Virus record (IMG/VR): IMGVR_UViG_3300032136_000018
Location: 1 to 28,329 of that record
DNA length: 28,329 nt
Source of the DNA: a virus
Taxonomy: Duplodnaviria > Caudoviricetes
Direction: 5' to 3' (one strand)
The stretch's first letter is position 1; each line of letters begins with the position of its first letter. Made by a program: the position numbers and the translations under genes. Shown here one piece after another: positions 2,365 to 28,147 of the stretch. The notes below the pieces were generated by a model. It was given only the letters and a program-made list of their open reading frames with translations. It was not told where the DNA came from and searched no databases.

Positions 2365-2982
2365 TTATCCTTTTTTGCCGAACAGCTCTTCGGAGAGATT
2401 GCCTGTTTCACGAATCAACATCTCGAATATTTCATTCTGTTGCCAAACAAACAGTCTAAAAATACCAACTCTATCGTTTGTTCTTTCCATCAATGCAGCA
2501 TCAACCAAGTTAGGATAAAGTTCGTTCAATCCAGAAATGTCAACTTCAACTTCTGCGCGAACCCTTTGATCGTCGCCTTCAACTCTTCCTTGGTTTCCTT
2601 TCAGTCCACCAACAATTGTGTCATGCATTGTTCCGGTAGCAATCCAGTTGTCGTCATACATAACAGGAAGCCAAGCATCGCCTCTTCTTTGAGTGGTATA
2701 TCCTCTTTGTAAATACCCAGCTTCGCGCAATATCCTTGGATACATATTTACAGGATGTGTCATCAAAGTTCTTTTTGTTTCTCTCCATCTCCTGCTTGTT
2801 GGAATATGACTAATGAAATCCATATTTCTTTGAAGATGCTCAATCAATTTCTTTCTAATCTTTGGCCAACTAAAATCTTTGAACCCTTGCGCTCCTATAC
2901 TGTCTTCCAGTGTGCCGAACGCAGCTTCAGCAAACTTCAGCTCCTTAATAAATTGCTTTGCATTTGTAGTAATCTTGAACAT
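2365..2982 (-). CDS. Neck / virion morphogenesis protein (putative)
   Basis: Lies between adaptor and terminator; TGATG stop/start overlap with the adaptor; IATGTMHDTI resembles the L.DTG.L..SI motif of neck proteins. Confidence 0.5.
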   Translation of the reverse strand: MFKITTNAKQFIKELKFAEAAFGTLEDSIGAQGFKDFSWPKIRKKLIEHLQRNMDFISHIPTSRRWRETKRTLMTHPVNMYPRILREAGYLQRGYTTQRRGDAWLPVMYDDNWIATGTMHDTIVGGLKGNQGRVEGDDQRVRAEVEVDISGLNELYPNLVDAALMERTNDRVGIFRLFVWQQNEIFEMLIRETGNLSEELFGKKG

Positions 2983-4199
2983 CAATAGTATCCTGTATCA
3001 TCCTCTGTATCGATAGTTCTTGTTCCGTACACAGCATCGTAGCCTGGGAACAACAAATCCCAATCAAGCAATCCATCGTAACTTTGGTTTGATCTGCTAA
3101 AGAATATATCAATGTCTGGTCTTCTCAAACCTTTACCAACACCAACAACACCCTTACCATCGAACAGAGAGTCCTCTGTAATCCAACGAGGTGCTGTTTG
3201 AATTGCAGCTCCAGACTCAGGATCGAAGTATTCGGTGTACTTCTTGATGTATCCGCTGAGATATCTCATCGCCTGCTTTGCCCAGCTCGAAAGATCGTTG
3301 TCTCTCTGTAGCAATGCAGTCGTGATGTCGTTTATGTTGTTTGGCAAACCTGTAATGGCTTGCTCATTATATATAGTAGTGTAAATGAAGAATGCGGCAA
3401 AACGACAAGTAGCAGCTGACACTGCTTTTGGAACCGTCGATCTTGTAAATCTTAATCCATCCTCCATTGCTTCTGTGTATCCAATGTTTTCCTCGAGAAT
3501 AACATCAACAAGAATCTCTGCATCTCTGACAAATTGAATTGCATCAAAAATCGACATATGACTGTCTGTATCCCACTGAATTGTGTCGTCCACAACAGGA
3601 GTACCAGACCAATCAGAGTTATTAATTCTGATTGAGTTGTCATCTGCGATAAAGTCGGTGTTGATATCACCCGTTCCTATTTCTCTCTTTTCATAGGAAG
3701 ATTCTTCACCAATCTCGAGCTTGAATTCAGTAACACTTGTGAATGTTAATGTGTAAGGGTAGGTCCCAGAATAATCAGGACTGATTGACAGAGCAGCTAG
3801 CTTGATGTCACCTGAGTTATTGCTATCAGCTCTCAGATTCTTGTAGCTATCAGAGAAACGAATCGTTCCTTCGTAGTTTTGTGAGCGCAGCAGTCTACGC
3901 ACGTCTTCGAATTTACAGTACGTTACATTAGGAGTGTATGCTTGAATTGGTTGAGAGAAGACACTCTCTGTTCCATCTGTTTGGATATACTTCCACTTGT
4001 ACCAGTGATATTCTGAACCGTCCTCATCGCCATATTCATAATACGATTCGTTTTCACAGAGTTCAATACGTGAGTTTGAATCTGTGATTTTGACATACGT
4101 GCCCCACTTGGTCTCTGCACGGTAGACATCAATGTAGTCAAAATCACAAGCAGTAGTGCTTATGTCTTCAACATGAATTGGAACATTAACTAATGACAT
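2982..4199 (-). CDS. Head-tail adaptor (Mu gp36/SPP1 gp15-like core) with N-terminal Fn3-like domain and internal insertion
   Basis: Core motifs YCKFEDVRRLL, DAEILVDVIL, VPKAVSAATCRFAAFFIY, AKQAMRYL. Residues 1-88 look Fn3-like (DVYRA...GTY...Y.YGD...WYKW...ES.FS). Confidence 0.65.
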   Translation of the reverse strand: MSLVNVPIHVEDISTTACDFDYIDVYRAETKWGTYVKITDSNSRIELCENESYYEYGDEDGSEYHWYKWKYIQTDGTESVFSQPIQAYTPNVTYCKFEDVRRLLRSQNYEGTIRFSDSYKNLRADSNNSGDIKLAALSISPDYSGTYPYTLTFTSVTEFKLEIGEESSYEKREIGTGDINTDFIADDNSIRINNSDWSGTPVVDDTIQWDTDSHMSIFDAIQFVRDAEILVDVILEENIGYTEAMEDGLRFTRSTVPKAVSAATCRFAAFFIYTTIYNEQAITGLPNNINDITTALLQRDNDLSSWAKQAMRYLSGYIKKYTEYFDPESGAAIQTAPRWITEDSLFDGKGVVGVGKGLRRPDIDIFFSRSNQSYDGLLDWDLLFPGYDAVYGTRTIDTEDDTGYY

Positions 4200-5004
4200 T
4201 CGGAACCTCCGCTGGATTCCATCCGGCGTCTAACTTCTTCTGAACAGCATCATAACCGACTTGATAGATTTCCTCAATTTTCTTCTGTGTGATGTTCATA
4301 AAGTCCATTGAGTTCCATGGAACATGGATATTGACTGTTCTAGAAAACACATCTGCGTCTTCAATGTGCTTTCTTTCAATCTCTGCCATCATTGAACCAA
4401 GAACAGCAATAGATGCTTCAAAAGCATTCTTTGGTTTTTCTGGCTTTGATTCTACAGAAGAAAGCAGTCTAAAACCAATAGCTTTTTCACCAACTAGATC
4501 GATTGGATAGTTATTAACAACACCACCATCAGTAAAGAGAGTGCCATCAAAAGGAACAACATCGAAGAGAAACGGGACACTTGCTGACATCCTCACTGCT
4601 TTGGGGACACTCATGGTTGGAGTGTTGTCTGGGTTGAAGACTCTGGCTTCTTTCTTTGCCAAATCTGTAGCAACCACATAGAGAGGAATCAAACATTGAC
4701 AGAATTTCTTTGGTGCGTATTTCTTCAATGCTTTTTCAAGTCCTTTCAATGAATACAATCCCCAATGATCTTTGCAGAACATTCGCCAGTTAAAGGACAT
4801 CACCTTCTTTGGAAGGATCTCGAGCGCGATACCCAGGCAGTCCTTTGGCTTCATGCCATTCGCCACAGGGCTGAAGGCAACTGCACCAGCTGAAGTGCCC
4901 CACAGCTCAGATGGATAGATACCATGATCATTCAAGCACTGAAGAGCACCCCAATGAGCATAGAGCGTTGCACCACCACCAGCACCAACAATAGGAAGTT
5001 CCAT
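4186..5004 (-). CDS. Patatin-like phospholipase
   Basis: Gly-rich oxyanion loop GAGGG, nucleophile elbow GTSAG, AVRMSASVPFLF and catalytic DGG (TDGGVVNNYP) are all present and in order. Start overlaps the upstream stop (TGATG). Confidence 0.93.
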   Translation of the reverse strand: MELPIVGAGGGATLYAHWGALQCLNDHGIYPSELWGTSAGAVAFSPVANGMKPKDCLGIALEILPKKVMSFNWRMFCKDHWGLYSLKGLEKALKKYAPKKFCQCLIPLYVVATDLAKKEARVFNPDNTPTMSVPKAVRMSASVPFLFDVVPFDGTLFTDGGVVNNYPIDLVGEKAIGFRLLSSVESKPEKPKNAFEASIAVLGSMMAEIERKHIEDADVFSRTVNIHVPWNSMDFMNITQKKIEEIYQVGYDAVQKKLDAGWNPAEVPNVIS

Positions 5005-5372
5005 CACGCTTTCGCTTTCTTTACACCATTTAGGCTTAACGCCACACCATTGACTTCATCTTTTATTGTCATAATTCTTTGTGTGTGTTGAGTTGCAAAT
5101 TGAATCACTTCAGCTGGATCTTCTTCACCACGTTCTACTCTTTGTGTCCAAAGAAGCGCTTCAACAACTCCACGATCTACCTTACCTAATTGAATCAATG
5201 CTTCTCCCAACAAAAAATCTGTGTTCTCATCTTGAAATTCTAATGCAGCACGTAAATCATCTACATCTATAATTCCTGCTTTCAATAACAGATTGCCTAA
5301 TGAATGTTTGTCTTCTTTTGCCTTATTTCTATTTCTTTTACTGTTCTTTCTAGAAAATAAAAAATCAAACAT
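5004..5372 (-). CDS. Stand-alone MshEN-like (c-di-GMP-binding type) domain protein
   Basis: Two tandem 24-aa motifs, SLGNLLLKAGIIDVDDLRAALEFQ and LLGEALIQLGKVDRGVVEALLWTQ, match RLGxx(LVI)(LVI)xxG(LVI)(LVI)xxxxLxxxLxxQ; both lack the first Arg and the second has two further substitutions. AGGAG SD. Confidence 0.8.
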   Translation of the reverse strand: MFDFLFSRKNSKRNRNKAKEDKHSLGNLLLKAGIIDVDDLRAALEFQDENTDFLLGEALIQLGKVDRGVVEALLWTQRVERGEEDPAEVIQFATQHTQRIMTIKDEVNGVALSLNGVKKAKA

Positions 5373-5381
5373 CTTGTTCTC

Positions 5382-5738
5382 CTATTCACTATCTTTATCT
5401 GTTTCAGTGTTGCTTTCTAAAAGTTTTATCTCAGGTTTTCCTATCAATTTAAGCAACGATTCTTTCATGACACATATTCTTTGAAATTCAGTCTTCAGCT
5501 CTTCAAGTTTATGTTTAACTCCTGATAATGCTTCCTTCAAAGATGTCAGTGTCATTTCTGTTTTAACATTATTCTCTACTTGTGCTACTGCCAATCCTGT
5601 TCCTTCTTTTCTAAGTATCCTATTCTCTCTTCGTTCAAAAAACCAAAGCATTAAAAAAACTGCTGAAACTGCGTAAGGACCACCATCACGCAATATTCCA
5701 ACAAGTTCTTTCAAGACTCCTATAAATGTTTGGTTCAT
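5382..5738 (-). CDS. Single-TM + coiled-coil membrane protein (holin/hemolysin-like, putative)
   Basis: Hydrophobic segment GGPYAVSAVFLMLWFF followed by ERRENR and a heptad-rich helix, the layout of BhlA/XhlA-type phage membrane proteins. Confidence 0.5.
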   Translation of the reverse strand: MNQTFIGVLKELVGILRDGGPYAVSAVFLMLWFFERRENRILRKEGTGLAVAQVENNVKTEMTLTSLKEALSGVKHKLEELKTEFQRICVMKESLLKLIGKPEIKLLESNTETDKDSE

Positions 5739-5769: not shown

Positions 5770-5913
5770 TCACTTATCTTTCTTCTCGCTTGTCAACTCA
5801 TTACGCTTTTTTTGTATTAGCTTTGTCACCTCACGGCTACCAATTTTTTCATAAAGCTTCACCAGATTACCCGGTTTCACTTCTTTTCCGTTAACCATGA
5901 TCTTCTTAGTCAT
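5770..5913 (-). CDS. Small basic hypothetical protein (47 aa), not in the ORF track
   Basis: Manual translation gives MTKKIMVNGKEVKPGNLVKLYEKIGSREVTKLIQKKRNELTSEKKDK*. A GAGGT SD precedes the ATG, which is 3 nt after the upstream stop. It fills the gap in the operon. Confidence 0.6.
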   Translation of the reverse strand: MTKKIMVNGKEVKPGNLVKLYEKIGSREVTKLIQKKRNELTSEKKDK

Positions 5914-5916
5914 TGT

Positions 5917-6603
5917 CTACACCTCATACCATTTATAACGTACAGCCATATCTACATCTACACTACCAATAGACACATATGAAGCACGTAAATAGAGACC
6001 AGGAAATACATCTCCTTTGGATGTAACTTCAATATCTCCTTCATTGCGACCTTCATGCATATACTCAGTTTTAACGTATTTTTCTAACACAAGAACATCA
6101 ACACCAACTGTTAAACCATAGAGAGCAAATAAACCAAGAACATCGTCTTTATCTACGATACTAAATTCAGCATAGTCACCCTTCTCTGCATTCTCACACC
6201 AATATGTTCCACCCTGTACGTAGATTTGAGTTGTAACAAGAATATCAAAGAAGCTTTGCGCGCCAGCTGTAGCTAACCATTTATTTCCTTCAAAGTGCCC
6301 CTTAGCTCCCGCTGTGTCCATGTACGTCGGGGCCACGATCATTCGTCCTTCAGAACTCAACGGTTGAATAACTTCATAATTTTTGAAATTAGTCTCAAAA
6401 TCAGTAGCATCTGAACTACCTTTGTTAATTCCACAAATTCTACATACAGGACCATCGATAGCTATGATATTGTACGCTTCACCCTCATCGACCCAGACGT
6501 AGCGCAGGATGGCGTAGGTGCCGTCGAGCCACTTCTTGAACTCAACCCAGCCCTCGTCACTGTGGTCGATCTCGACCTGACTACGTATTTGGACTTTGGG
6601 CAT
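5917..6603 (-). CDS. Hypothetical, probably virion-associated beta-rich protein
   Basis: 228 aa, coupled to the upstream gene (TAATG overlap); beta-rich C-terminal half; no family recognised. Confidence 0.55.
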   Translation of the reverse strand: MPKVQIRSQVEIDHSDEGWVEFKKWLDGTYAILRYVWVDEGEAYNIIAIDGPVCRICGINKGSSDATDFETNFKNYEVIQPLSSEGRMIVAPTYMDTAGAKGHFEGNKWLATAGAQSFFDILVTTQIYVQGGTYWCENAEKGDYAEFSIVDKDDVLGLFALYGLTVGVDVLVLEKYVKTEYMHEGRNEGDIEVTSKGDVFPGLYLRASYVSIGSVDVDMAVRYKWYEV

Positions 6604-9110
6604 TACGACTCCACCAACTGAACCAAGATATCGAAGTTGCGCTGCTTGCTCACGACTCCACCGTTGTACTCGATGACAAGCTCGGTCCCGGCCGGGAATG
6701 TTAGAGCACCTGGGCCGAACAACGTCTCGGTCTGTGCCGACGTGCTCTGGTCTTGGTGGTAGGCGAGCTGGATGAAGCCCATGAGCTTGATAGCGCCAGA
6801 TGACGACGTGGGACTCGTGCTCATGGCCTGCACCGACCTGACGCCGAGGTCCCCGGCCTGGAGCGTCAGCAGAACGCGCGTGCCCACGGCAGAGTTCTTG
6901 GTGAACGACATCGTGCCCGTGCGCCCACTCACGCCTAGTTCGTTGGTGTAGGTGACGGTGATATCGACATCGGACGCAGAACCGATCTGCTGTGTGACCT
7001 CGGCCGAGACGATGGTTGTGAACTGCGGTTCGAGGTACGAATCGCCGCCCGTGAAGACGTTGGTGATGATGTCGAGCGTGCCCAGCGTGATGACGGAGGC
7101 AAAACGAGATGTCGCCACCTCTGACTGGTAGCTGACGAACTTGAGGATGTAGCCATGATAGCCTGGCGGCACGGTGTACGACTGCACCCGTTTGTAGCTT
7201 CCGGCGACCGTGGCCCCGTCGCTCTTGCTGTAGTTGAGGTTGATGATCTTGGGCAGCGACAACTCACCATTGGGATTGCCGAACTGGATGGTGACGGGCA
7301 GACCGTCCTTGATGCCCTCGACAGCGAGACCGGAGCCGATGGATTCCGTGGCCACCTGGACTCTGTTGAAGTTGGCGAAGTAGATCGTGTCCACGGCCAG
7401 TGTCGTCGATGACGCCGGGATGCCGTCGTTCTGGATGTCTAGGTGCAGATCCATGTACGCATAGGGACCGGGGATGTGCAGAGTGTGCCGGGCCACGCGC
7501 ACGCTGTTGATGAACAGATGCACGGCACCCGCCAGCACCTCCAGACGATAGATGTTGTCTTCGTCCGTAGTCGCGCCAGCGGGCATCTTGACCTGCGTAT
7601 CCTCCACATCGTCGCCTGAGAACGATGTCCGCAGGGTGACCAACGAATCGTCGGTGCCGTCGAATATGATCAGGGCCTCGGAATCGGGGCTCGTTTCCGA
7701 ATCGCTGAAGCCGACGTGACCGATCTGGTTGGCTATGCGCTGACTGATACTGCCCTTGAACTCCAACACGAACGGCAGGTAGTCGCCAAGACGGCGCGCT
7801 CCGACCTCGGCATCCTCTGTCGTACCCGACGCCACCAGGATCTCGGAGCCCGTCTGCGTGATGGCGCAGCCCGTGTCAATCTGGTAGGCCCACAACGAGC
7901 GGTTGCCGTCGCCGTCGCCCGTCGTGCCCTCGTAGGGCTCATCGAGCAGCAGGTACTTGTCGCTGAGCACCTCGCCAATGAGCGCCCATGCCGTGTGCCC
8001 ATCGGCGTCGCGTTTGATGTAGTCGTCGGCACTCAGCTCCCCAAAGAAGGCAGTGCCGACGCCGGTTACCACGCGCGAGCCGTTGGTGAAGAAGACGCTG
8101 CCCGTCAGCGTCGAGTAGATCGCGCTGCCGGGAAAGTCGTCTCGGAAACTAGCCTCATCGGTGAGTACGTGCGAGCGCGTGCTGAGATTGCGCCCGGCGT
8201 CGAGCAGGAGAGCGCGGTCGGCCTCACGGTCTACGTGATTGTAGGGAGCCGGGGCATAGCCGTCCGTGGACGACGACAGTCGCAACTTGCCCTGGGGCGT
8301 CAAGGCTCGTGGCAGCGCCTCGGCAATAGGGCACAGACCCGTCTGCAACCGTAGGTAGGTCGTGGCCGCGCCGCCGATGTTCGTGACCACGACGCGGAAG
8401 TAGCTGGCAGTGGCCTGGAACGTGCGACTATCTCCCTCGGCGGTGAAAAAGTCCGCGCCATCGTGGATGTCCCAATTCACGCCGTCGGGAGACTGCTGCA
8501 CATCGACATGACACGGTTGGTCGGAAATGAAGCTGACCCTGATAGCAGAGATGCCCAGCGTCGGCTCGGCCTGACCCGTGAACGCGGCACCAGCCGCCAA
8601 GTTGTCTGTGCTGTTATTGTAGAACGACGGCTGCACGTCCTGGATGACAGCAGCGCGGGAGATCGACGAACCAGCAGAGCCACGAGCCACGACACTGGCT
8701 GTGCCACTGGTCCAGACCGAAGAGCGAGCACGACAGTATTTGAAGCCCACGCAAATGGTGCGGAAGATGCCGTTCTGCGTCGTCTGCGTGGCAACAGCCC
8801 TGTCTCCTGGCACCAGATAACCTGCGAGCGTGAACCAGTTGACGCCGTCGATGGACGCCTCACCGACTATCGTTCCCTCCCACGTCCCCGTGATCTGAAA
8901 CGAGGCGACACCGCAGCCCTCGCAATCCAGTGCCACGGTCTCGTTGAGGGCGGTGATATCACCGCTAACCACACGATCTTGAAGTTGGGCCGGTTGGATT
9001 GTGTCGCCCGTGGGATCGACGCGCCACGGCTTGTCAGACAGCCCCTTCTCTTCGTAGCCACCAACACCATCGCTACCGTAGATGACTCTGGCTTTGCTCT
9101 CGTCACTCAT
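6603..9110 (-). CDS. Large multidomain virion appendage protein (jelly-roll repeats, fibre-type beta-domain, ConA/LamG-like domain)
   Basis: 835 aa. Two S.DGVNW modules (EASIDGVNWF, QQSPDGVNWD), a TGSVFFTNGSRVVTGVGTAF fibre-type motif, and a lectin-like YRLEV...VHLFINSVRVARH segment. Confidence 0.6.
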   Translation of the reverse strand: MSDESKARVIYGSDGVGGYEEKGLSDKPWRVDPTGDTIQPAQLQDRVVSGDITALNETVALDCEGCGVASFQITGTWEGTIVGEASIDGVNWFTLAGYLVPGDRAVATQTTQNGIFRTICVGFKYCRARSSVWTSGTASVVARGSAGSSISRAAVIQDVQPSFYNNSTDNLAAGAAFTGQAEPTLGISAIRVSFISDQPCHVDVQQSPDGVNWDIHDGADFFTAEGDSRTFQATASYFRVVVTNIGGAATTYLRLQTGLCPIAEALPRALTPQGKLRLSSSTDGYAPAPYNHVDREADRALLLDAGRNLSTRSHVLTDEASFRDDFPGSAIYSTLTGSVFFTNGSRVVTGVGTAFFGELSADDYIKRDADGHTAWALIGEVLSDKYLLLDEPYEGTTGDGDGNRSLWAYQIDTGCAITQTGSEILVASGTTEDAEVGARRLGDYLPFVLEFKGSISQRIANQIGHVGFSDSETSPDSEALIIFDGTDDSLVTLRTSFSGDDVEDTQVKMPAGATTDEDNIYRLEVLAGAVHLFINSVRVARHTLHIPGPYAYMDLHLDIQNDGIPASSTTLAVDTIYFANFNRVQVATESIGSGLAVEGIKDGLPVTIQFGNPNGELSLPKIINLNYSKSDGATVAGSYKRVQSYTVPPGYHGYILKFVSYQSEVATSRFASVITLGTLDIITNVFTGGDSYLEPQFTTIVSAEVTQQIGSASDVDITVTYTNELGVSGRTGTMSFTKNSAVGTRVLLTLQAGDLGVRSVQAMSTSPTSSSGAIKLMGFIQLAYHQDQSTSAQTETLFGPGALTFPAGTELVIEYNGGVVSKQRNFDILVQLVES

Positions 9111-13522: not shown

Positions 13523-13945
13523 TTAGTTGATAGTGTTAGACACCAGCAACGAAGACGTGTACATAATTCCACCACCAACTAACGTACCCAATAAAAAGAT
13601 TCCTACATCAACATACGCTTCAACACGTTCATCATCATTCATTGCTGCCATTTGTATGGATAGATTTTCAAAGTTATCCTTCCATTTCTTTGTGATATCT
13701 TCTTGTACTTTAAATTTCTCGTCTTTGATTTTCAGAAGTTCTTCTTGTGCATCTATCTTCGATTGTTGTTTAGCAATTGTTCTTTTCAATGAAGGAACTT
13801 CAACATCAATAATTTTCAACATCTCACGAGCCTTTTCAGGCTCAAAACAATACATCTCTCTGCCATCGGCAGCCTTACACTTCTCAGCTGCAATAGCACC
13901 AGTGCTAAAAGCCAAGCTCATTAAAACGAGCAAGAATCTCATCAT
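13523..13945 (-). CDS. Secreted coiled-coil protein with C-terminal TM (spanin-like, putative)
   Basis: Signal peptide MRFLLVLMSLAFSTGAIA, coiled coil, C-terminal hydrophobic VGIFLLGTLVGGGIMY; overlaps the upstream gene by 41 nt. Confidence 0.5.
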   Translation of the reverse strand: MMRFLLVLMSLAFSTGAIAAEKCKAADGREMYCFEPEKAREMLKIIDVEVPSLKRTIAKQQSKIDAQEELLKIKDEKFKVQEDITKKWKDNFENLSIQMAAMNDDERVEAYVDVGIFLLGTLVGGGIMYTSSLLVSNTIN

Positions 13946-14261
13946 CTGTCATCCCTTCGATCTTCATCTTCCCTGCTTCAATTTTCTTCTTCTCTTCAAC
14001 AATTTCTTTTTCAATCTCTCTGATATCTTTTATCTTAATTGTTTCTTTAGTTTCCAACACTGCCTTCTTCGTTTGCAGGTGGCTTACCTCATTTTTGGCA
14101 TTGGCCACCTGCAAACGAAGAAGCAAATCGGTTATCTTGAACCCGCGCATCTTAAACCAGAACGCGAGTGCTGTTATAACAAGCACAAGAAAGAGCAGTA
14201 ATAGAAGTAGTATCTTTACTGCGTTGGTCTTGAACCAACTCTTGATCAATTTCCAACTCAT
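13905..14261 (-). CDS. Inner-membrane spanin-like protein (N-terminal TM + coiled coil)
   Basis: Long hydrophobic ILLLLLLFLVLVITALAFWF followed by a charged coiled coil; ATGA overlap with the holin. Confidence 0.5.
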   Translation of the reverse strand: MSWKLIKSWFKTNAVKILLLLLLFLVLVITALAFWFKMRGFKITDLLLRLQVANAKNEVSHLQTKKAVLETKETIKIKDIREIEKEIVEEKKKIEAGKMKIEGMTDDEILARFNELGF

Positions 14262-14602
14262 TTGCTAATTCCATTCTCCCCAAGCTTTCCCTTGAGGAGA
14301 TCGCCGCTGTTCTTCCAAACAGCTTTCCACACCTGACCACTGATACCACCAATAGCAAGGCCGAAAACAATTTTCGTACCTAAGTTGGCAGCATCAATGA
14401 CACCAGGAATGAAAGCAGCTCCCATACCCAAAAGCATAGGAGCATAAGGAAGAAGAATCTCAACTGGAAGCTTCTTCAAAAGCTTCAGTTTTTGAAGAGT
14501 GGCTTTGACTGCACCAAGCAGAACTTGGATTGCAATCACCAACACCAAGTTATTCAGTGTCATCAAATCATCAAGCGAAACGAGTTTTGCTGCTTCTTCC
14601 AT
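14258..14602 (-). CDS. Holin (putative, ~3 TM)
   Basis: 114 aa with three hydrophobic segments (LPYAPMLLG, GLAIGGISG motifs) and a charged C-terminus; AGGAGG SD. Confidence 0.65.
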   Translation of the reverse strand: MEEAAKLVSLDDLMTLNNLVLVIAIQVLLGAVKATLQKLKLLKKLPVEILLPYAPMLLGMGAAFIPGVIDAANLGTKIVFGLAIGGISGQVWKAVWKNSGDLLKGKLGENGISK

Positions 14603-14616
14603 CACTTCCTCCTTCT

Positions 14617-23934: not shown

Positions 23935-24861
23935 ATGCATAGGGTTGTGCTTGTGGATGGGAATGCCCTGGCATTCAGGAGTCTCTTCTCCCATGAGACT
24001 CTGACCACCAAGCTCAAAGGCAAAGTGGTCTTCACTGGCATGGCTTTCGGGTTCTTAAAAGGGCTCCTAAGTATTATCGAAGAAAAAACCTTTGATAAAA
24101 TTGTGGTCTTTTGGGACGGTGGTTCCGATAGAAAAAAAGAGATCTTCCCAGACTACAAAGCCAATAGAAAACTCAATACAAAAAAGATGAAGTACAGGGA
24201 CATAAAAAATTCCTTAAAAACATGCAGACGACTCATGAAGCTCATTGGTATCGAGCAGTACCGGGTGAAGGGAGAGGAAGCGGACGACTTGATCTCGAGC
24301 TACATCGCCCAGCATAAGGACGAGTGGGAGCAATTCGTCATCTACTCCAACGACCACGACTTCCTGCAAATGCTCCGCATGAAGAAGGTGAGGGTGCTCC
24401 AGCGTAGGTCTGGTGAGAGTCGATGGTGGACCAAGAAGAAGTTCATCAGGGAGTACGAATACAAGAAGAGTCGTCTAGGCTTTCACCCGAAATATTACCC
24501 TCACTTTCTAGCAATCGTAGGCGACTCCACAGACAACATCCCTGGCATCAAAGGGATCGGACCACAGACAGCAGTAGATATCTTCAGTCAGGTTAACTCT
24601 CCAACGTTGGAAGAAATTGAAAGTGAAATCCATACAATGGTTCTGACAGAAAATGTGAGAACCAAACTAAAAGAAGGAATGGAAATAGCTAGAATGTTTC
24701 TTAGTATTATCACACTCAAACTAGACCTAGAGCTAGTACCTCTCGAGACACCAAGGCAAAGACCAAGAAAGTTGCTTGATTTGATGATGGCGCTAGAATT
24801 TAGAAGTATCTACGAAAACGAAAACGATATGTCTGAGCTATGTAACTTAGGAGAACGATGA
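23935..24861 (+). CDS. 5'-3' exonuclease / flap endonuclease (PolA N-terminal-like)
   Basis: LVDGN, VFWDGG, YKANR, EADDLI, SNDHDFLQ and GDSTDNIPGIKGIGPQTA (H3TH) motifs. Confidence 0.93.
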   Translation: MHRVVLVDGNALAFRSLFSHETLTTKLKGKVVFTGMAFGFLKGLLSIIEEKTFDKIVVFWDGGSDRKKEIFPDYKANRKLNTKKMKYRDIKNSLKTCRRLMKLIGIEQYRVKGEEADDLISSYIAQHKDEWEQFVIYSNDHDFLQMLRMKKVRVLQRRSGESRWWTKKKFIREYEYKKSRLGFHPKYYPHFLAIVGDSTDNIPGIKGIGPQTAVDIFSQVNSPTLEEIESEIHTMVLTENVRTKLKEGMEIARMFLSIITLKLDLELVPLETPRQRPRKLLDLMMALEFRSIYENENDMSELCNLGER

Positions 24862-25073
24862 AGAATCAACCAAAACCAGATGAAAAGATTGTTCCACTCA
24901 AGCTCATTCAAGATCGAAGCGAGTTTTCTGCTATAGGTACGTGCAAATGTGGTCGCACTCTTACCATGACCAATCTTCACAAGTCAATAGATGAACCACT
25001 CTTAGCGCAAGCCGAAATGATTTGCGGTGGGTGTCAAAGAGCTTATAGGTTCATTGTTGTAGAACAGGAGTAA
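24858..25073 (+). CDS. Small Zn-ribbon protein
   Basis: CKCG...CGGC; ATGA overlap with the exonuclease; AGGAG SD. Confidence 0.55.
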   Translation: MKNQPKPDEKIVPLKLIQDRSEFSAIGTCKCGRTLTMTNLHKSIDEPLLAQAEMICGGCQRAYRFIVVEQE

Positions 25074-25076
25074 ACA

Positions 25077-25580
25077 ATGACAAAAAGAAAACACCACCCA
25101 TTTGGTCCAATGGTGAAACTCAGTAAAAACTTCACATATGGTGAGATGACTAAATCTAAAACAGCACAAAGAATGGGTATCAAGAATATACCAAATTACG
25201 AACAACTAGATGCTTTAATCGATCTCTGTGTTAATATTCTTCAACCAATTCGTGATCACTTTAAGAAGCCGGTACATGTTAACAGCGGCTTCCGTGGTAC
25301 AGAGGTAAACAATGCTGTTCCTGGCAGCAGCAGAACAAGCCAACACAAGAAAGGTGAAGCTGCTGATATCGAAATTTACGGTATCTCGAATATTGCTCTT
25401 GCTGAGTGGATCAGAGACAATCTTGAATTCGATCAATTGATTCTTGAGTATCATACTCTTGAAGATATCAATAGTGGTTGGGTTCATGTTAGTTATACAT
25501 ATAGGCGAAGAAATAGAAGACAAGTTCTTTCAAAACTCTCTGGTGAGAAAAGATATCGCAAGGGGCTTGTTACTCAATGA
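25077..25580 (+). CDS. Peptidase M15A family endolysin (Zn peptidoglycan peptidase)
   Basis: LSKNFT..E...S.TA, LQPIRD, SGFR, SQH..GEAAD, FDQLILE, WVHVSY. Confidence 0.9.
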   Translation: MTKRKHHPFGPMVKLSKNFTYGEMTKSKTAQRMGIKNIPNYEQLDALIDLCVNILQPIRDHFKKPVHVNSGFRGTEVNNAVPGSSRTSQHKKGEAADIEIYGISNIALAEWIRDNLEFDQLILEYHTLEDINSGWVHVSYTYRRRNRRQVLSKLSGEKRYRKGLVTQ

Positions 25581-26074
25581 GCAAACAGATTCGTTTCATG
25601 CGGCCTAGTCCGCAATCTATTATCAACGACATCTTCCTGCGTGGTGCTCAAGCTGAGCGCACCATGATGATTATCGTTGATAGCTACTTTGTAGGACAAC
25701 CTGATTCTGTCAAGCCAGGAGATAGAGTTCCGCCTCTATATAATCTTGGTATAGAATCTGAAAAGAAAGCTTTAGAGATATTCGAAAAGACAATGAAGCA
25801 ATTGAAGGCTACTAATTGGAAATTCAGAATGACTTCGGATATCGGAAAAGGACCGTATCTTGAGGTGATAAAAAAATACACAAGCAAAGAAGTGAAGTTC
25901 ACTGACTTCGAATCATTTGCAGATAAGACACGTTCTCTGATTGTCTTTGCTAGAAGAGACAGTCGTGGCGATCAGTGGGAAAAAATCGCCAACAGATATC
26001 TCGAGCTGGGTAAACCAGTTTGTGTGGTAGACGAGTTTGGCGTGAAGAGATATCCTAGAACAGATTATCCTTGA
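25577..26074 (+). CDS. Hypothetical protein, weakly SLOG/YspA-like
   Basis: C-terminal LIVF...DSRG.....IA......GKPVCVV resembles the SLOG C-terminal motif; ATGA overlap with the endolysin. Confidence 0.4.
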   Translation: MSKQIRFMRPSPQSIINDIFLRGAQAERTMMIIVDSYFVGQPDSVKPGDRVPPLYNLGIESEKKALEIFEKTMKQLKATNWKFRMTSDIGKGPYLEVIKKYTSKEVKFTDFESFADKTRSLIVFARRDSRGDQWEKIANRYLELGKPVCVVDEFGVKRYPRTDYP

Positions 26075-27742: not shown

Positions 27743-28147
27743 CTACTGCCCCAAAACCTCATCCTTGAACTTCTTCAGGACACGAGCCTTGGCTACGGTC
27801 TTGGCCTTGATGCGTATCTTCTCCCCTGTGGCCGGATTGCGCCCCCAGCGAGCCTTGGTGCGCCTCTTGGTGAGCTTAATCATGCCGGGGATGGTGAAGG
27901 AGCCATTCTTCTTCACTTGCTTCACAGCGAGTTCTACGAAGTCTGCGATGAAGTCTCGAGCCTCCCCTGGCTTCATCTCATAGAGGTCAGCCATGTGGCG
28001 GGCGATCTCCATTTTGGTCATCGCCTTCTTGGTGGTGGCCTTCTTTTTCTTGGGCTTGATCTTTCCGCTTCTCACATCCCTCCAATACTTCTTCATACGT
28101 TCACTAGCAGTCATCACCTTCTTCTTTGTCTTCTTCTTCGCTGGCAT
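27743..28147 (-). CDS. hup: HU family DNA-binding protein with Lys-rich N-terminal extension
   Basis: MTK.EI...A, FTIPG..KL and AR.GRNPATGEKIRI.AK motifs; AGGAGG SD. Confidence 0.9.
   Translation of the reverse strand: MPAKKKTKKKVMTASERMKKYWRDVRSGKIKPKKKKATTKKAMTKMEIARHMADLYEMKPGEARDFIADFVELAVKQVKKNGSFTIPGMIKLTKRRTKARWGRNPATGEKIRIKAKTVAKARVLKKFKDEVLGQ

Follow-up and report, generated by a model that had tools for sequence, protein, structure and literature searches.

A recurrent phage cassette of a single-pass membrane protein, a stand-alone MshEN-type protein and a patatin, with a possible role in lysis

The trio and its occurrence in other phages

We analysed a stretch of 28,329 nucleotides (nt) of an uncultured tailed phage (IMG/VR record IMGVR_UViG_3300032136_000018, positions 1 to 28,329), hereafter the window, which contains a trio of genes on the minus strand. 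The first gene (5382..5738) encodes a single-pass membrane protein of 118 amino acids (aa) with a C-terminal coiled coil. The second (5004..5372) encodes a stand-alone MshEN_N-type protein of 122 aa, recognized by the profile NF053729 and by its predicted fold. The third (4186..5007) encodes a patatin-family acyl hydrolase recognized by PF01734, with 273 aa from a GTG start or 272 aa from the ATG at 5004. An earlier note on this DNA had described three consecutive genes at these places, and the junctions that it gave are exact: a 9-nt gap separates the first two genes, a TGATG stop/start overlap joins the second and third, and the patatin overlaps the next gene (2982-4199) by 14 nt. The late-operon, membrane- and lysis-like setting was also borne out. 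The cassette is real and conserved, is built from known parts, and is undescribed in the papers that could be searched.

The 118-aa protein has a single hydrophobic segment of 17 residues (mean hydropathy 1.24) and a coiled-coil-like tail, an anatomy like that of the BhlA/UviB holin-like proteins. Its homolog in locus L006 showed a sub-threshold match to Holin_BhlA (17.9 bits vs a cut-off of 22.6), and an ESM Atlas comparison matched the window protein to a BhlA cluster (0.90, 187 of 256 features), which we treat as a lead only. The earlier label "holin-like" agrees with the single-transmembrane (TM), coiled-coil anatomy, but the protein fails every holin model, and its membrane segment is short and moderately hydrophobic. 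Homologs stand before the small gene in all related loci, and their alignment was too variable for use as a scan profile.

The MshEN-type protein consists of a basic and aromatic N-terminal tip, a tandem motif for binding cyclic di-guanosine monophosphate (c-di-GMP; residues 24-77) and a long C-terminal helix (86-116). The tandem motif had been called from the sequence by the earlier note, and is confirmed by a match to NF053729 (E 7e-9) and by PDB sequence matches that all fall on PilF, MshE or PilB (9 of 9). A Pfam scan gave no match to PF05157 for the window protein. Five relatives (L006, L009, L014, P0008 and L192; four of 10 in one set and one of four in another) pass the NF053729 cut-off. 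The profile and structure check that the note had suggested for 5004-5372 predicted an MshEN_N-type four-helix fold, the AlphaFold2 model showing four helices over residues 25-80, with a predicted local distance difference test score (pLDDT) of 79-89 over residues 21-80 and lower confidence in the C-terminal helix. The top 11 Foldseek matches of this model were all c-di-GMP-bound PilF GSPII-B or MshE (E 0.4-1.9), seven of them with a root-mean-square deviation (RMSD) of 1.0-1.2 Å over 52-54 residues. A fold search of BFVD returned nothing at E 0.001 or better, and the ESM Atlas contained three clusters rich in viral proteins (95-122 aa) that show similar features. Judged by the model, the 122 aa form a stand-alone four-helix module of the MshEN_N type.

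An exhaustive profile search with the MshEN-type family matched 8,478 proteins at E 0.001 or better, those listed being mostly long and multi-motif. Among 50,697 cultured phage records, none matched the MshEN-type protein, and four gave weak patatin matches. Viral scans with alignments A1, A3, A7 and A8 added no further locus. The viral range of the gene given here is a lower bound.

The patatin, recognized by PF01734 with E 7e-27, retains the motifs listed in the earlier note (the Gly-rich loop, GTSAG and DGG). Its Ser-Asp dyad and Gly-rich oxyanion loop are as described for FplA and PlpD (PMC5724010). All 15 aligned relatives share the catalytic Ser38 and Asp159. The AlphaFold2 model (pLDDT 86.5) has PlpD as its nearest solved fold, followed by CapE/CapV, and contains no extra nucleotide-binding domain. 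A second, distant phage patatin (L164:3529-5855) is encoded immediately after small membrane genes and a DUF5675 gene, in a lysis-like cluster.

Recurrence in other phages, which the note had proposed as a check, was found: all three genes are present in nine independent loci (the window, L001, L005, L006, L009, L014, L087, L098 and L188), with patatin identity down to 29%. Duplicates were merged in this count, and L008, which is the window itself, and L011, which has no upstream DNA, were left out. The gene order of the window is the same in L001, L005, L006, L009, L087 and L098, the last lying in a complete 110-kb myophage genome (G004) with a baseplate J gene and a portal family differing from that of the window. 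The order in L188 is rearranged to patatin-membrane-MshEN, and in L014 a zinc-ribbon gene separates the MshEN-type gene from the patatin. Three of the 12 patatin cassettes (L010, L022, L186) lack the MshEN-type gene and consist of the membrane gene, another small protein and the patatin; L186 is a complete genome (148 kb) with the patatin and no NF053729 match anywhere. The 45-kb fragment of L192, which is 25% complete, encodes the membrane-MshEN pair but no patatin. The single-TM coiled-coil membrane gene lies no more than three genes from the patatin in 12 of 12 patatin-clade loci with context. Outside the cassette loci, two sets of 80 patatin loci each gave no match to the membrane or MshEN profiles, and seven of 11 loci from a further search had none of the three genes within 4 kb.

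In L010:420-659 and L186:5489-5740, the MshEN slot is occupied by a second unannotated small-protein family (32% mutual identity), and in L022:5811-5999 by a third small-protein type. Two loci (L014:708-1040, L006:404-763) have a zinc-ribbon protein, placed within the cassette or immediately ahead of it.

Ligand-contact residues of the MshEN-type protein

Mapping of the window protein onto MshE showed that G11, L25, L29, Q32, L39, G40, L58 and Q61 are retained, and that L54 is replaced by Val, R9 by Ser and R38 by Leu. The polar contacts Gly11/Gly40 and Gln32/Gln61 correspond to G26, Q47, G56 and Q77, which are invariant in 13 of 13 aligned relatives, as are L55 and L59. The hydrophobic triads (L25/L29/L39 and L10/L54/L58 in MshE) correspond to L40, L44 and L55, and to L25, V70 and L74; the equivalent of MshE position 54 is variable among the relatives. 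Invariant columns make up five of the 12 ligand-contact columns and one of the 42 other domain columns (Fisher p 0.0013; 13 relatives with 16-82% identity to the window protein), compared with 5/12 and 2/42 in an earlier set of relatives. This selective conservation is in line with the receptor function suggested in the earlier note.

We also examined 34 further small relatives, namely the proteins among the best 150 of the 8,478 matches that were newly listed and short, with a single match over nearly the full length; one is the L098 protein already in the profile, and genomic context is known for that one alone. All four Gly/Gln/Gly/Gln residues are present in 31 of the 34, a figure inflated by the selection of these proteins with the profile. 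The first motif position, where the rule is Arg, Lys or Leu, is an allowed Leu in motif II and a Ser in motif I throughout the family. Motif I opens with D-x-x-S (Asp in 32 and Ser in 31 of the 34), while Ser occupies that position in only two of 181 motif hits in 109 long proteins. This Ser falls outside the extended MshEN consensus, and the D-x-x-S start would either extend that consensus or point to a different ligand.

PilF GSPII-B has no Arg yet binds c-di-GMP at 6 nM; introducing one (L196R) weakens binding fourfold, Leu at the start of motif II being better than Arg (PMC11731258). In MshE, changes of Arg9 cost at most about fivefold in binding, and Gly11 is essential (PMC5013675). We rejected the argument that the phage protein is degenerate because it lacks arginines as insufficient, since PilF GSPII-B binds tightly without them (PMC11731258); for the same reason, Leu or Met at motif II is compatible with tight binding. 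We infer, with somewhat better than even confidence, that the MshEN-type protein binds c-di-GMP or a close relative. In most members of the family of cassettes, the small protein carries a probably functional c-di-GMP module.

The alternative that survives best is that the MshEN fold is a ligand-free adaptor, the trio being an envelope or lysis accessory in which the small protein is a structural partner (antiholin-like or a tether) and nucleotide binding has been lost. Although both arginines are lost and Ser is conserved in motif I, the polar contacts G11, Q32, G40 and Q61 are among the most conserved columns, and Arg is dispensable in PilF GSPII-B (PMC11731258). Non-binding GSPII domains are known, as in XpsE and PilF GSPII-A (PMC5013675, PMC12002112), but XpsE has lost G11, G40 and Q61 (PMC5013675). 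In L010, L186 and L022 the slot is taken by small proteins that are unrelated but resemble the MshEN-type protein in their N-terminal tip and C-terminal helix, as an adaptor role would predict. Weighing these points, we consider a ligand-free adaptor unlikely, though a serious competitor.

Partner of the MshEN-type protein and function of the cassette

The earlier note had suggested a split sensor-effector pair; in such a model, the patatin would be bound directly by the MshEN protein, with c-di-GMP as the on/off switch of the lipase. The patatin adjoins the MshEN-type gene in seven of 10 loci, with TGATG translational coupling in the window; the membrane gene stands immediately before the MshEN-type gene in 10 of 10. 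Pairwise identities of the MshEN-type proteins correlate with those of the membrane proteins (rho 0.53) and not with those of the patatins (rho -0.09), in a comparison of eight loci whose pairs are non-independent. L005 and L098 are joined in both the membrane and the MshEN trees (support 97/98 and 97/97), a grouping that the patatin data reject (approximately unbiased test, p-AU 0.006). The patatin grouping is in turn rejected by the membrane and MshEN data alike (p-AU 0.0003). Judged from these comparisons, the MshEN-type gene tracks the membrane gene, not the patatin, and this part of the earlier proposal is not supported.

The patatin tree (16 rows) places the 12 phage enzymes in one clade, separate from four bacterial enzymes (100/99). 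A clade of the nine patatins that neighbour an MshEN-type gene is rejected (p-AU 7e-7), at least three state changes being needed, and the patatin of L014 (with) is sister to that of L186 (without) at 100/99. The pairing is also broken physically: the two genes are apart in L014 and L188, the MshEN-type gene is missing in L010, L022 and L186, even across the complete L186 genome, and the L192 pair has no nearby patatin. The MshEN neighbour of a patatin can thus be exchanged or missing, which speaks against an interface dedicated to this pair. On the other side, the three genes are still together after the rearrangement in L188, and the nearest patatin folds include the nucleotide-gated CapE/CapV. 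Prediction of a complex of the MshEN-type protein, the patatin and c-di-GMP scored 0.00 in two of two runs, and was used as evidence neither way. Direct gating of the lipase by the sensor thus appears unlikely from the sequences, and we give this model little credence.

The explanation that we favour, at slightly below an even chance, is that the trio is an accessory lysis or envelope-breaking cassette, in which the MshEN-type protein binds c-di-GMP and acts via the membrane protein rather than the patatin. The patatin would hydrolyse host membrane lipids, and the single-pass membrane protein would be the hub of the cassette, serving as a holin-like anchor. The MshEN-type protein may be a small cytoplasmic partner of the membrane protein that binds host c-di-GMP and tunes the unit, possibly through a coiled-coil contact between its C-terminal helix and the membrane protein. 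The cassette may thereby influence when lysis occurs or how efficient it is. Sensing of c-di-GMP would be an optional extra in a cassette that is also found without it. Because the window encodes an endolysin and further membrane genes elsewhere, lysis probably does not depend on the cassette alone.

A more specific and rather speculative form of this explanation is that a membrane-tethered phage c-di-GMP receptor gates holin-like and patatin lysis, so that the sessile or motile state of the host sets when or how the cell bursts. If true, the phage would read a housekeeping second messenger late in infection, in contrast to the breakdown or sequestration of an immune messenger. Phage interference with c-di-GMP and phage sponges of immune nucleotides are known; no phage-encoded MshEN receptor or c-di-GMP input to lysis was found in the searchable literature, which lacks most subscription journals. 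The soluble 122-aa protein makes the receptor idea directly testable, and the cassette would make patatin-assisted lysis, to date a proposal made for phage WO alone, readily amenable to testing.

Several observations weigh against the favoured explanation. The MshEN-type protein scores 35.4 bits with NF053729, below the cut-off of 38. Guanine stacking is impossible for the family-specific Ser that opens motif I, and in PilF GSPII-A a stable N-cap (helix cap) prevents binding (PMC12002112). The membrane protein belongs to no Pfam, PHROG or NCBIfam family and passed no holin model; among its homologs, those in L186 and L192 match the profile weakly (E 0.02-0.03), and the one in L188 was identified by its appearance. 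The groups tested in the trees were named after the identities had been seen, and the congruence test comprises only eight loci. In the patatin, Thr13 aligns with the Arg that follows the Gly loop in PlpD, and 14 of 15 relatives have no Arg or Lys there. This residue presumably binds the phosphate head group, and its absence suggests that the substrate may not be a phospholipid. The window contains an M15 endolysin and a second holin/spanin-like membrane gene set, so that, unlike in the proposal for WO, the patatin is no substitute for canonical lysis. Finally, the bins holding relatives are labelled Thorarchaeota, Thermoplasmatales and Halanaerobiales; these labels conflict and allow no host assignment, and the contigs are probably mis-binned phage sequences.

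The MshEN-type protein might instead be a nucleotide sponge for host c-di-GMP or cyclic GMP-AMP (cGAMP), blunting immunity or altering the biofilm or pilus state, with its neighbours incidental. It is small and stand-alone; phage sponges of cyclic nucleotides exist, MshE binds 3'3'-cGAMP weakly (PMC5013675), and phage peptides that disturb c-di-GMP are known (PMC8085984). The gene, however, lies directly behind the membrane gene in a late structural operon in 10 of 10 loci, and the C-terminal helix is kept across the family. Anti-defence genes are usually early. A sponge is therefore improbable in our judgement, somewhat more so than direct gating. Least probable is a virion- or assembly-associated hydrolase for entry, with the trio part of a head-tail or fibre module rather than a lysis unit: the trio does lie between fibre-like genes and a putative adaptor that it overlaps by 14 nt, and canonical lysis candidates are found elsewhere in the window, but the structural genes that follow the cassette differ between genomes of siphophage and myophage type, and the cassette member present throughout is the membrane protein.

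Surrounding genes and comparison with known systems

The window is a tailed-phage late region, largely on the minus strand (38 open reading frames (ORFs) scanned). It contains, in order, genes for the small and large terminase subunits, a Mu-like portal, a protease, the major capsid protein and fibre-like proteins, followed by the trio, a 405-aa gene and the tail tube. The 405-aa gene (2982..4199, minus strand) flanks the cassette and lies outside it. The earlier note had called it a head-tail adaptor: the overlap with the patatin is exact, but profile scans of Pfam, PHROG and NCBIfam found no family for it, and the label comes from its position and from the N-terminal 89 aa, which are 31% identical to an adaptor-like protein of L098 matching PHROG 442. 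It is best described as a virion-module gene and a possible adaptor, and differs from the gene that follows the patatin in L098, L014, L010, L022 and L188.

Upstream of the trio, two minus-strand genes of 47 aa and 228 aa (5770..6603) were traced with tblastn and ORF lists. They also precede the cassette in L005, L009, L098 and L188, and not in L001, L087 and L022, and the 228-aa homolog occurs in seven more phages without the cassette inside 4 kb. The adjoining fibre-like gene (6603-9110, 835 aa) has 61% GC vs 34-43% for its neighbours, which suggests recent exchange. After the capsid region, three small minus-strand membrane genes (13523-14605) may be a canonical holin/spanin set: a multi-TM protein with a weak PHROG holin match (E 0.22), a TM and coiled-coil protein with a weak Rz-like spanin match (E 0.11), and a coiled-coil protein that has a signal peptide and ends in a hydrophobic C-terminal segment. 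The plus-strand genes at 23935-26074, opposite to the structural operon, encode a 5'-3' exonuclease, an M15 peptidase annotated as endolysin (25077-25580, from a Pfam/PHROG-type scan of the window ORFs) and two unknown proteins. An HU/IHF-like DNA-binding protein with a lysine-rich N-terminal extension of 40 residues is encoded at 27743-28147. A promoter and terminator scan was at chance level (9 vs 8.8 expected and 2 vs 2.7 expected).

The closest relative on a long contig, G001 (110 kb), carries a tape-measure-type protein of 3,752 aa and also an M15 endolysin, with an exonuclease/endolysin layout like that of the window (L092:8530-10169). Large head-region proteins of G004 (L182:10053-18334, L183:3981-7103) contain inorganic pyrophosphatase and Hint, ddrB-ParB and SAM-lyase, and zeta-toxin-like kinase domains. 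No GGDEF, EAL, HD-GYP or integrase family was found in scans that covered 82 of the 97 listed G001 ORFs (bases 58,000-71,000 left out) and 75 of the 82 listed G004 ORFs, in both cases with mechanical ORF picking, which may miss genes.

Among known systems, the patatin recalls the CapV/CapE effectors of CBASS (cyclic oligonucleotide-based antiphage signalling) in its fold, its Ser-Asp dyad, its top structural matches and the cyclic-nucleotide theme. CapV/CapE bind the nucleotide themselves, whereas any sensor here would be a separate protein. Identity as a CBASS effector was rejected, the NF041079 score of 20.9 bits being far below the cut-off of 200, and no CD-NTase family was found among the 38 window ORFs scanned. 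Like BhlA/UviB (PF10960), the membrane protein is small, with one short N-terminal hydrophobic segment and a charged coiled-coil tail; unlike them, it has no PF10960 match, the one sub-threshold match belonging to a homolog.

The lytic cassette proposed for phage WO, the closest described layout, pairs a patatin gene with an adjacent holin-like gene upstream of the tail module (PMC9203015). The trio shares with it the patatin and its small, holin-like neighbour with one TM segment and a coiled coil, the proximity to the tail module, and a role in lysis that is a proposal in both. The window differs in having no ankyrin gene among its hits, in encoding a peptidoglycan hydrolase candidate, and in the third member of the cassette, an MshEN-type or other small protein.

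The closest parallels of the MshEN-type protein are MshE of Vibrio cholerae (PDB 5HTL) and Thermus PilF GSPII-B (PDB 8PDK), with which it shares tandem 24-residue motifs, a predicted four-helix fold at about 1 Å RMSD, and the equivalents of Gly11, Gln32, Leu39, Gly40 and Gln61; the Leu at the start of motif II is shared with PilF GSPII-B. Unlike MshE and PilF, the phage protein is viral and stand-alone, without an MshEN_C subdomain, ATPase or enzyme domain, and is set apart by the D-x-x-S Ser at the start of motif I, a 6-residue spacer, and the added basic N-terminal tip and C-terminal helix.

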